Position numbers and translations under genes: made by a program | Source: an uncultured Acidimicrobiales bacterium | GTDB lineage: Bacteria; Actinomycetota; Acidimicrobiia; Acidimicrobiales; VFJN01 | Reading direction: 5' to 3' | DNA length: 64,000 bases | Assembly: GCA_963759225.1 (NCBI GenBank) | Contig: CAVWYL010000022.1 | Coordinates: forward strand, 311,642 to 375,641 | In this document: piece after piece, positions 62,769 through 63,737 of the stretch | How positions within the stretch are numbered: the stretch's first letter is position 1 | How the letters are laid out: each line of letters begins with the position of its first letter | Notes under the pieces: generated by a model | Database searches by the model: none | Seen by the model: only the letters and a program-made list of their open reading frames with translations | Told to the model about the DNA's origin: nothing

Positions 62769-63737
62769 TCAGTCGCACCACCACTCCCACCACTCGCACT
62801 CCTCCGGCGGCGGAGTCGTGGTGGGCGGGGTGGTGGGGTCGGGACCGCCACCGCCGTCGATGGGGCAGGTGTTGCGGTAGTCCGACAGGCCGGACCGGCT
62901 GCCCGGGCACAGGAACTGGTTGTAGCGGGTGTCGTCGTCGACGAACCGCTTCAGCCACGACAGCATGTACCGGACCGTCGGCTGGTTGGCCGAGGCGGCG
63001 AGCATGTGGCTGGCGCCGGAGGCCTCGACGTACGCCTTCTCCGGAGCGTTGCTCAGGCTGTTGTAGAAGGGGATCGAGTGCGAGCCGGTCGACGCGATGG
63101 TGTCGTTCTGGGCGCCGATGATGAGCGTGGGGACCCGGACCCCCGGCCACGACTTCTGCGAGTGCCACGGCTGCTGCGGGACGGCGGCCTGGATCGACGA
63201 GTCGGCGTTGGCCGCGGCGAGCGTGCCGCCGCCGCCCATCGAGTGGCCGCTGACGGCCAGGCGGGTCGGGTCGATGCGGCTGCGCACCGCGCTCGGGCTC
63301 GAGCTCGTCAGGTACCGCAGCGCGGCCTGCAGCTGCTGGCCCCGGCTGTCCGGCTGGTCGAACCGCGAGTTCGTGTCGATGGTCATGACCACGAAGCCGT
63401 GCGACGCGAAGCGCGGGCCCTGCCAGGCGTAGGTCGACTGGCCGGCGGTGAAGCCGGGGGCGATGACGACCGCCCCGAACGTGCCCTGGCTGGTGTCGGT
63501 GGGGTAGTAGATCGTGCCCCCGCCGAAGCCGCTGGCGCCGGTGGCGTTGGTCTGCGAGACGGCGAACGGGCCCCGGCTGGCCGTGAAGGTGGACTCGGTC
63601 GGGTCCGGACCCCTCTGGTACGGGCTGGACTGGGCGCCGGCGGAGCCGGACGCCACGACGACGCTGCCGGCCAGCCCGGCGGCGAGCGCCACGCAGGCCA
63701 GGCGGCGCCGGGCGCCCCTGACGGATGAAAGCAACAC
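62769..63737 (-). CDS. Secreted cutinase / polyester hydrolase of the actinobacterial PET-hydrolase type with Pro/Thr linker and CEWWEWWCD tail
   Basis: Near-colinear with my memory of Thermobifida cutinase, LCC and IsPETase: YQRGPDPT, GFGGGTIYYP, nucleophile elbow GHSMGGGG, Asp in IIGAQNDTIA, His in GASHML, WLKRFVDDDTRYNQFLCPG...C. A GAGGGGGA Shine-Dalgarno precedes GTG 63737. Signal peptide: RRRLACVALAAGLAGSVVVASGSAGA. Confidence 0.88.
   Translation of the reverse strand: MLLSSVRGARRRLACVALAAGLAGSVVVASGSAGAQSSPYQRGPDPTESTFTASRGPFAVSQTNATGASGFGGGTIYYPTDTSQGTFGAVVIAPGFTAGQSTYAWQGPRFASHGFVVMTIDTNSRFDQPDSRGQQLQAALRYLTSSSPSAVRSRIDPTRLAVSGHSMGGGGTLAAANADSSIQAAVPQQPWHSQKSWPGVRVPTLIIGAQNDTIASTGSHSIPFYNSLSNAPEKAYVEASGASHMLAASANQPTVRYMLSWLKRFVDDDTRYNQFLCPGSRSGLSDYRNTCPIDGGGGPDPTTPPTTTPPPEECEWWEWWCD

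Follow-up and report, generated by a model that had tools for sequence, protein, structure and literature searches.

The closest characterised relatives of the enzyme described here are the polyester hydrolases PHL7/PES-H1 (PDB 7NEI, 7CUV and 8BRA), LCC and TfCut2, and all published or solved constructs of the PHL7 type end at ...YRxTCPF. In other secreted depolymerases the catalytic domain is followed by a Pro/Thr/Gly linker and a C-terminal binding module, as in the CBM2 modules of cellulases and xylanases and the binding domains of polyhydroxyalkanoate (PHA) depolymerases. Exposed Trp residues are the binding determinants of these modules and a disulfide ties each module together, and Pro/Thr linkers typically connect catalytic and binding modules in actinobacterial depolymerases. 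We analysed a 64,000-nucleotide stretch of an uncultured Acidimicrobiales bacterium (contig CAVWYL010000022.1; hereafter the window), of which the G+C content (GC) is 74%. Its minus strand encodes, at 62769-63737, a secreted cutinase that has its catalytic domain in common with PHL7, LCC and TfCut2 and whose activity on poly(ethylene terephthalate) (PET) is a prediction. Unlike the published constructs, the protein continues beyond the catalytic domain with a Gly/Pro/Thr-rich linker and a tiny Cys-bracketed loop of four Trp residues. The tail seems to vary the theme of catalytic domain, linker and binding module in a very small form that has not been described, with the loop as the part that would bind.

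The tail occupies positions 62772-62861, which are exactly the 30 codons after ...YRNTCP, and is followed by the stop codon:

62799-62861, minus strand: Gly/Pro/Thr-rich linker with an acidic end, residues 293-313 (IDGGGGPDPTTPPTTTPPPEE), modelled with a confidence (predicted local distance difference test, pLDDT) of about 50
62775-62798, minus strand: Cys-bracketed four-Trp loop CEWWEWWC, residues 314-321, with C, W, W, W, W and C invariant
62769-62774, minus strand: terminal Asp322 (62772-62774) and TGA stop codon (62769-71)

A sequence-only reading of the window had described four Trp between two Cys (CEWWEWWCD) after ...YRNTCP and then a stop, and the minus-strand open reading frame (ORF) bears this out; nine residues are left after the linker, and the sequence stops one residue past the C.WW.WWC motif. 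The string TGGTGGNNNTGGTGG occurs twice in the window against 0.04 expected, and lies in a real ORF only in the cutinase copy. Neither Pfam nor NCBIfam gave a match in residues 293-322, the 30-residue tail alone matched no NCBIfam family at E<=10, a tail profile matched no PDB entry at E<=10, and no transmembrane segment was found in the tail.

To place the tail among relatives of the enzyme, we searched with the whole protein, which returned 4952 homologues at E<=1e-30, and counted tails in the best 120. Of the 120, 56 had C-x-W-W-x-W-W-C close to or at their C-terminus behind a Gly/Pro/Thr linker, down to 56% identity in the catalytic domain. The linker measured 15-34 residues in 55 of these 56 and was conserved in composition but variable in sequence and length. 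The six C/W positions were intact in 55 of the 56, the exception being a W-to-G change at the second Trp, and in alignment A1 (41 distinct tails) the two Cys and four Trp were the sole invariant columns. The first variable position was occupied by E (27), R (10), A (6), Q (6) and others, and the second by E (29), Q (22), A (3), M or D. The motif was followed by the stop codon (22), by D (11), or by a short extension such as RLGLGF, WLGL or TDSNALRGFLGIG; some extensions follow the pattern [RW][LFMI]G[LIFW]G[FLA], and the longest comprise 6-17 residues. The 64 tail-less homologues end 0-3 residues past ...TCP. This agrees with the earlier statement that type I cutinases and PET hydrolases end soon after the second disulfide, as does the fact that all PDB matches to the window protein stop at query residue 292-295. 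On a neighbour-joining tree of the catalytic domains the tail is distributed clade-wise with about five state changes. The mature proteins contain four Cys in 55 of the 56 tail-bearing homologues versus two Cys in 62 of the 64 tail-less ones, as a separate intraloop disulfide would predict, and the two tail cysteines probably form such a bond.

Judged from this pattern of conservation, which goes far beyond chance, the tail is a real and selected appendage. The opposite explanation is that it is a non-functional accident, namely a 3' frameshift, a read-through or an assembly artefact of the window sequence. There are several indels between the window and a contig that is 98% identical (L121), and some database entries are chimeric (P0003, P0121 and L152). 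However, the tail is in frame in 56 homologues from many samples, one of which (P0131) is present on 24 contigs, and its six C/W residues are invariant despite more than 40% divergence elsewhere in the protein. We therefore rejected the artefact explanation, which is extremely unlikely, and the frame change by a 3' indel that the sequence-only reading had named as a possible refutation is ruled out.

Several database sequences deserve separate mention. P0003 is probably an assembly artefact: its N-terminal half derives from another cutinase, and its C-terminal half has exactly the sequence of the window protein. The same probably holds for P0121, in which the middle of the domain is missing, and for L152, whose ORF has an unrelated N-terminal part. 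In one cutinase clade (P0008, P0014, P0026, P0121 and L244) the tail is extended by ...C-TDSNALRGFLGIG, and a very similar stretch (ESNARLRAL or ESNALLRAI) precedes the linker in a second type of hydrolase, which is described below (L210 and L166). The presence of this stretch in both types hints at past recombination between the 3' ends of the genes.

The same kind of tail is found in native genes of the PHL7 lineage. The 90%-identity cluster of P0024, of which the tail ends ...PPEDDCPWWAWWC, includes PHL7 and PES-H1/H2 (PDB 7NEI, 8BRA, 7CUV and 7E31). PHL7 is identical at 253 of 256 positions to residues 37-292 of P0131, a protein from a metagenome-assembled genome (MAG). Whereas PHL7 ends ...EYRSTCPF plus the tag, P0131 goes on with HSGSGGGTTPPPEDDCPWWAWWC (...CPWWAWWC). 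The identity between the window enzyme and this native PHL7 orthologue is 58%. The PHL7 gene was obtained by amplification from compost DNA; the degenerate primers were aimed at 'mature protein coding sequences', and the reverse primer was 5'-GWRSGGGCAGKTGSMSCGGTACT (PMC9303343). Its reverse complement encodes ...YRxTCP(F); the natural 3' end of the PHL7 gene was therefore not recoverable. The expectation that the tail would matter to polyester enzymology is thus strengthened, in that native orthologues of PHL7/PES-H bear it.

One tail-bearing member of the family has been characterised. MBO2503201.1 (P0133) bears the tail and was studied as 'Thb', with a product of 35 kDa; the C-terminus, the linker and the tryptophans are nowhere mentioned (PMC11782994). 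The size of 35 kDa would be compatible with a full-length construct. P0131 lies in an identical chromosomal context on its 24 contigs, and the loci have 77% GC. Some copies of the PHL7 lineage in GenBank are labelled 'Thermoanaerobacterales bacterium' and others Acidimicrobiales or Acidimicrobiia. Because of the 77% GC, the former label is probably a binning error, and Thb, described as an 'anaerobic Thermoanaerobacterales hydrolase', may be actinobacterial instead. The PHL7-lineage locus (L246-L248) has DNA polymerase III alpha and menaquinone-pathway genes as its context. Our literature searches on the motif strings and on Trp-rich C-terminal extensions of cutinases and PET hydrolases found no description of the tail. 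The tail can thus be called novel as regards description, but not as regards sequence, since tail-bearing proteins such as MBO2503201.1 are already public.

The tail was then sought outside the cutinases by scanning metagenome contigs with a degenerate DNA pattern for C-x-W-W-[EQ]-W-W-C, which gave at least 120 matches; the counts that follow hold among the matches listed. Most of these were out-of-frame chance, and in at least 10 loci a long ORF ended with the motif, behind a Pro/Thr-rich linker. Five of these terminal matches were cutinases. L210 encodes a secreted alpha/beta hydrolase with a weak match to PF12740 (E=1.2e-11) and 25% identity to the window enzyme; it is without the ...LCP...TCP pair, yet it ends ...PEPEPECEWWEWWCD with the tail ECEWWEWWCD. 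L166 is a fragment with a C-terminal sequence like that of L210, and L214 has a C-terminal half like Hydrolase_4 (25.4 bits, just under the 27-bit cutoff) and ends ...KKKSCKWWQWWC. L129 and L204 encode TadE-like proteins (PF07811, E about 1e-13), in which Pro/Thr stalks of 50-70 residues end in C[EP]WWQWWC, and P0160-P0164 are further TadE-like proteins with the tail. In L179 (5115-5250, plus strand), on a contig of 44% GC, a Cys-rich repeat protein that exceeds 1200 residues has an exact CEWWEWWC straight behind its signal peptide, at the mature N-terminus; this is possibly an N-terminal version of the same loop in an unrelated organism.

The TadE-like family was examined by a search of its own, in which the named members were MAGs of Dehalococcoidia. 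The family comprises 62 short members without the linker and 25 with a Pro/Thr linker, and a Cys-bracketed mini-loop stands at the end of 20 of these 25. Eleven of the loops are aromatic (C.WW.WWC; C..[WY]P[WL]LC; CIWLIWFWWC) and nine are basic (CRRFGC, CKKKSC, CHRHCH and others). The four-Trp loop thus takes the same position in this family as other 'sticky' Cys-bracketed loops. One tail-bearing member lies inside a TadE-Tad-TadE-TadE cluster. The alternative loops (PWYC..WPWLC; CRRFGC, CKKKSC and CHRHCH) were seen in P0165, P0167, P0168, P0170, P0185, P0246, P0171-P0175, P0181, P0194 and P0203, and tandem TadE-like paralogues on one contig can have different tips or none.

These occurrences show that the tail is a portable terminal module that extends beyond this gene and beyond the cutinases. 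The search that the sequence-only reading had proposed, for C-x-W-W-x-W-W-C tails in homologues and other secreted enzymes, was thus fruitful; the tail is specific neither to this gene nor to cutinases, because the loop also ends TadE-like pilus proteins and other hydrolases. The presence on TadE-like proteins and other hydrolases therefore favours a general role in adhesion or anchoring over a polyester-specific one. The general architecture is that of an exported protein, a Pro/Thr stalk and a tiny loop of 'sticky' content closed by a putative disulfide. The window tail has these features: C.WW.WWC lies within about 17 residues of the C-terminus, behind a Gly/Pro/Thr linker, on an exported protein.

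Two described classes of C-terminal element resemble the tail in position. CBM2 and PHA-depolymerase modules are independent folds of about 40-100 residues that match a profile (about 100 residues for CBM2 and 40-60 for the PHA-depolymerase domains), whereas the loop has 8-9 residues, no beta-sandwich and no match in Pfam, NCBIfam or PDB. The sorting signals LPXTG, PEP-CTERM, GlyGly-CTERM and MYXO-CTERM are likewise short, strictly C-terminal after a Pro/Thr-rich spacer, and present on unrelated exported proteins. Those signals continue past the motif into a hydrophobic transmembrane helix and a basic tail. Unlike them, the window tail has no transmembrane segment, no basic tail and no NCBIfam match, and no sortase-type gene was found in five loci. 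A degenerate carbohydrate-binding module and a degenerate sorting signal were both rejected, because the tail is too short, has no transmembrane segment and matches no profile. In tryptophan zippers, indolicidin, tritrpticin and the anchor peptides fused to PETase, clustered Trp dominates and confers interfacial or hydrophobic affinity, and the indoles are fixed in place by cyclisation or by a hairpin. The window loop may resemble those peptides, but they are cationic or synthetic, whereas it is natural, anionic in its context, bracketed by Cys and part of a 30-kDa enzyme.

We tentatively favour the explanation that the tail is a minimal disulfide-closed adhesion clip on a stalk that binds neutral hydrophobic polymers, although we hold this at somewhat less than an even chance. 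After export, the two tail cysteines would pair as a disulfide and so close a small ring on which the indoles of four Trp residues are exposed. At a distance of about 20-35 residues from the enzyme, this ring would serve as a minimal non-catalytic adhesion clip that partitions onto hydrophobic or aromatic surfaces, most plausibly insoluble polyester (cutin, suberin or synthetic polyesters). The enzyme would thereby be kept on the surface, in the manner of the far larger carbohydrate- and polymer-binding modules. The clip is supported by the conservation and portability of the tail, by the Cys counts, by the loops at the equivalent position in the TadE-like family, and by the lack of a conserved neighbour in five cutinase loci and of a transmembrane segment. 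Polymer binding is preferred as the function because the tail is enriched on polyester-type hydrolases and because its context is acidic. Engineered anchor peptides rich in Trp, like the planar Trp residues of CBM2-type modules, help proteins to adsorb to PET and other hydrophobic polymers, and actinobacterial Pro/Thr stalks are often O-glycosylated. We infer the disulfide, the exposed geometry of the Trp residues, the binding function and the binding target alike.

Several observations weigh against this explanation. On the Wimley-White interfacial scale the loop sums to between -3.8 (CEWWEWWC) and -7.3 kcal/mol (CPWWAWWC), which speaks for the clip, but the acidic flanks cancel the gain: EECEWWEWWCD sums to +1.4 kcal/mol, which is unfavourable, and partitioning in the window protein is therefore not obviously strong. 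AlphaFold leaves residues 293-322 unstructured, with pLDDT of 45-57, no secondary structure and no docking. The occurrence on pilus subunits shows that the target need not be polyester, and the hydrophobic extension conserved in some clades (RLGLGF, WLGL) has a role that the clip model does not explain. In addition, the range of other protein families is based on a sample, namely the matches listed.

The pilus proteins and the extensions bear at the same time on another explanation, in which the Trp loop holds the protein non-covalently to the cell's own envelope (the membrane interface, a wall polymer or the S-layer), with the Pro/Thr stalk spanning the wall, so that the enzyme would work near the cell without diffusing away. 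TadE-like pseudopilins are components of the envelope or pilus, the basic Cys-loops at the same position would suit an anionic envelope, and a Pro/Thr-rich spacer with a short C-terminal element on diverse exported proteins is reminiscent of surface-sorting tails; moreover, extensions such as WLGLGA and RLGLGF lift the interfacial affinity to -6.5 to -10 kcal/mol. However, the loop and its flanks are mostly anionic (EE/DD and the terminal D), which is unfavourable for anionic membranes and walls, and the protein has neither a transmembrane helix nor, in the five loci, a sortase-like or other conserved partner gene. A specific wall ligand would also be unlikely if the attributions to Acidimicrobiia and Dehalococcoidia hold, since their envelopes differ. 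Retention at the cell surface is thus an unlikely explanation, though one to be taken seriously.

The strict position and the rigid pattern of the motif could alternatively mean that C.WW.WWC is not itself a binding surface but a tag that is recognised by a dedicated enzyme or in the course of secretion, perhaps for C-terminal processing, for Cys-Trp or Trp-Trp cross-linking, or for glycosylation or prenylation of Trp. Of the 11 real metagenome matches listed, 10 have the motif C-terminally and the remaining one (L179) has it after the signal peptide; the six C/W residues do not vary, in contrast to the two free x positions; and the motif shows the W-x-x-W spacing twice, in overlap, as well as a W-x-x-x-C spacing reminiscent of tryptathionine peptides. 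Such a tag would be expected neither to lack a conserved modifying enzyme beside the gene, as is the case in five genomic contexts, nor to be replaced at the same TadE-like position by quite different loops (basic, or WPWLC), which fit interchangeable sticky tips better. No NCBIfam or Pfam sorting-signal model matches the tail either, and we regard a recognition tag as distinctly unlikely.

The constant association of the loop with a Pro-rich stalk raises one more explanation, since Trp is the classical ligand of polyproline-II helices. The loop might bind a partner, either a surface receptor, in the manner of a dockerin, or the polyproline-II linkers of its neighbours, and thereby cluster enzymes or pilus tips, and several kinds of exported protein indeed bear the tail. 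No gene for a candidate receptor was found, though, AlphaFold did not dock the tail on its own catalytic domain or linker, and the proposal is otherwise pure analogy, which makes docking or self-association very improbable.

Returning to the adhesion clip, a wider form of it can be put forward, in which C.WW.WWC is one subtype of an unrecognised, widespread class of minimal terminal adhesion modules. Such a module would consist of a Pro/Thr stalk and, at its tip, a 'sticky' loop of 4-8 residues that is closed by a disulfide; secreted depolymerases and pilus tips would be provided with it in monoderm Actinomycetota (Acidimicrobiia) and Chloroflexota (Dehalococcoidia); and the four-Trp form would be a natural polymer anchor of the PHL7 lineage that was lost by cloning with the polymerase chain reaction, so that its restoration would measurably change adsorption and turnover on PET. 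Taken together, these three statements are possible but on the doubtful side.

Further scans delimit where the tail was seen. A word-index protein search with the 40-residue tail gave no candidates; this index leaves out the low-complexity stretch, and identical tails are present in the database. A hidden Markov model of the tail (27 positions, of which 6 columns are informative) gave a single match at E<=1e-3, a truncated cutinase, among 1.84 billion representatives; significance is unreachable for it in a set of that size, so that this result is mute on other families. In a DNA scan of a genome collection with TGYNNNTGGTGGNNNTGGTGGTGY, 92 of the 122 matches listed lay within 30 residues of an ORF end, and no true tail was among these 92, all of which were out-of-frame or short-ORF chance, for example the recurring 'TPRCAWWGWWCCAR'. 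A scan of viral contigs for the tail motif gave chance matches only. A recurrent false match, 'TPRCAWW[GE]WWCCAR', was found out of frame in short ORFs on contigs of 0.61-0.68 GC (L006, L074, L120, L135, L159, L168, L188, L200, L201 and L228), of which the three genome loci bear the label Ilumatobacteraceae or Acidimicrobiales. The match evidently stems from the wrong frame of a conserved gene, and it was the chief cause of false positives in DNA pattern scans.

The remainder of the cutinase gene is organised as follows:

62769-63737, minus strand: coding sequence of the secreted PETase-like (type I) cutinase, 322 residues plus stop codon, PF12740
63633-63737, minus strand: predicted signal peptide, residues 1-35 (MLLSSVRGARRRLACVALAAGLAGSVVVASGSAGA, followed by QS), read from the sequence
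62862-63632, minus strand: catalytic alpha/beta-hydrolase domain, residues 36-292, delimited by Pfam, invariant columns and pLDDT

The longest minus-strand reading frame is 62769-63800 and extends to an ATG at 63800; its translation of 343 residues has the C-terminus ...FLCPGSRSGLSDYRNTCPIDGGGGPDPTTPPTTTPPPEECEWWEWWCD-stop, of which the terminal part is also given as ...SDYRNTCPIDGGGGPDPTTPPTTTPPPEECEWWEWWCD-stop. The GTG at 63737 is probably the likelier start, because a Shine-Dalgarno-like GAGGGGGA run lies 3 nt upstream of it and because the database proteins P0001 (98% identical) and P0128 (identical from this GTG onwards) begin at the residue that it encodes. The predicted signal peptide has an Arg-rich n-region, a hydrophobic core and an AxA site (AGA before QS), and would be cleaved after A35; A35 and Q36 are almost invariant in a 70-sequence alignment of homologues (A2), and AlphaFold gave pLDDT below 50 over residues 1-31.

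The catalytic domain is that of an ordinary new member of the type I cutinase and PET hydrolase family. PF12740 matched with E=7.5e-114 and 380 bits (cutoff 28) over positions 2-263 of the 263-position profile; this Pfam PETase domain stops at ...TCP and nothing is assigned in the tail. The triad consists of S166 (GHSMGG), D212 and H244, and G164, H165, S166, M167 and G168 as well as D212 and H244 are invariant in the 70-sequence alignment. The domain closes with the pair C277...C291 (...FLCPGSRSGLSDYRNTCP), of which C277 is invariant and C291 almost invariant in the same alignment, and which probably forms a disulfide. In the AlphaFold model the core shows pLDDT above 90 with alternating beta and alpha elements. 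The closest solved chains are cutinases and PET hydrolases, and the best PDB matches are PHL7 variants (E about 1e-110). The NCBIfam equivalog for bis(hydroxyethyl) terephthalate hydrolase (NF051441) gave 407 bits, under its cutoff of 520, and the native PHL7 orthologue P0131 is likewise under it with 489 bits. By profile, triad and predicted fold, the window protein belongs to the type I cutinases and PET hydrolase-like enzymes, and its activity on polyester is predicted.

Downstream of the stop codon lies a hairpin:

62712-62750, minus strand: perfect 16-bp GC-rich hairpin with a 7-nt loop, arms 62712-62727 and 62735-62750

It begins 18 nt past the stop, and the surrounding 86 nt fold at -52.1 kcal/mol (z=-7.9). 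The sequence-only reading had called it perfect and 'terminator-like'. The 16 perfect pairs and the z-score agree with this description, but the U-tract is missing and a consensus terminator scan did not call the hairpin. Comparable GC-rich hairpins follow the stop in five orthologous loci (L121-L124 and L246), and it is therefore an ordinary 3'-end structure for such high-GC genomes, likely a transcript 3' end or terminator structure ahead of the gene that follows. That gene, downstream of the cutinase and the hairpin, encodes a GNAT-family acetyltransferase (62017-62634, minus strand); it has the same position in L121, not in the other cutinase loci.

Immediately upstream of the cutinase is an operon for an extracellular contractile injection system (eCIS), with genes for a gp19-like tube, CIS_tube, VgrG/Phage_GPD, gp25, Tail_P2_I and PAAR. 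It occupies 63866-64000 (minus strand) and beyond, the end of the PAAR gene standing at the right edge of the window, and corresponds to 1-9872 of L121. The possibility that the cutinase is eCIS cargo was rejected, as it has a signal peptide and as its neighbours at the four other tail-bearing loci are unrelated ones, without the eCIS operon; that the two are adjacent here is probably a coincidence. Across the five tail-bearing cutinase loci no conserved neighbour, partner, sortase-type or modifying gene was found. On the other side of the acetyltransferase gene, the region of about 58809-61985 (plus strand) corresponds to one gene of 1058 residues (eCIS_core plus Het-C) in L121 (11753-14929), and in the window the same region is split over the overlapping ORFs 57426-60638, 60064-60990 and 60918-62045. 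Over about 11 kb, 18 small indels separate the window from L121, and the split gene reflects either pseudogenisation or indel errors of the assembly.

Adsorption to the polymer surface is a limiting step for PET hydrolases, and much engineering fuses binding modules or anchor peptides to them. A whole clade, including the PHL7/PES-H1 lineage, has apparently been equipped by nature with an eight-residue aromatic clip on a stalk. PHL7/PES-H1 are among the most active PET hydrolases, and their characterised constructs and crystal structures are without the clip because the cloning primers ended at ...YRxTCP. The clip may offer a very small transplantable tag. Beyond polyester degradation, exported proteins of poorly studied phyla seem to share an unannotated family of tiny terminal loops, putatively closed by a disulfide, which domain databases miss because the loops are too short.

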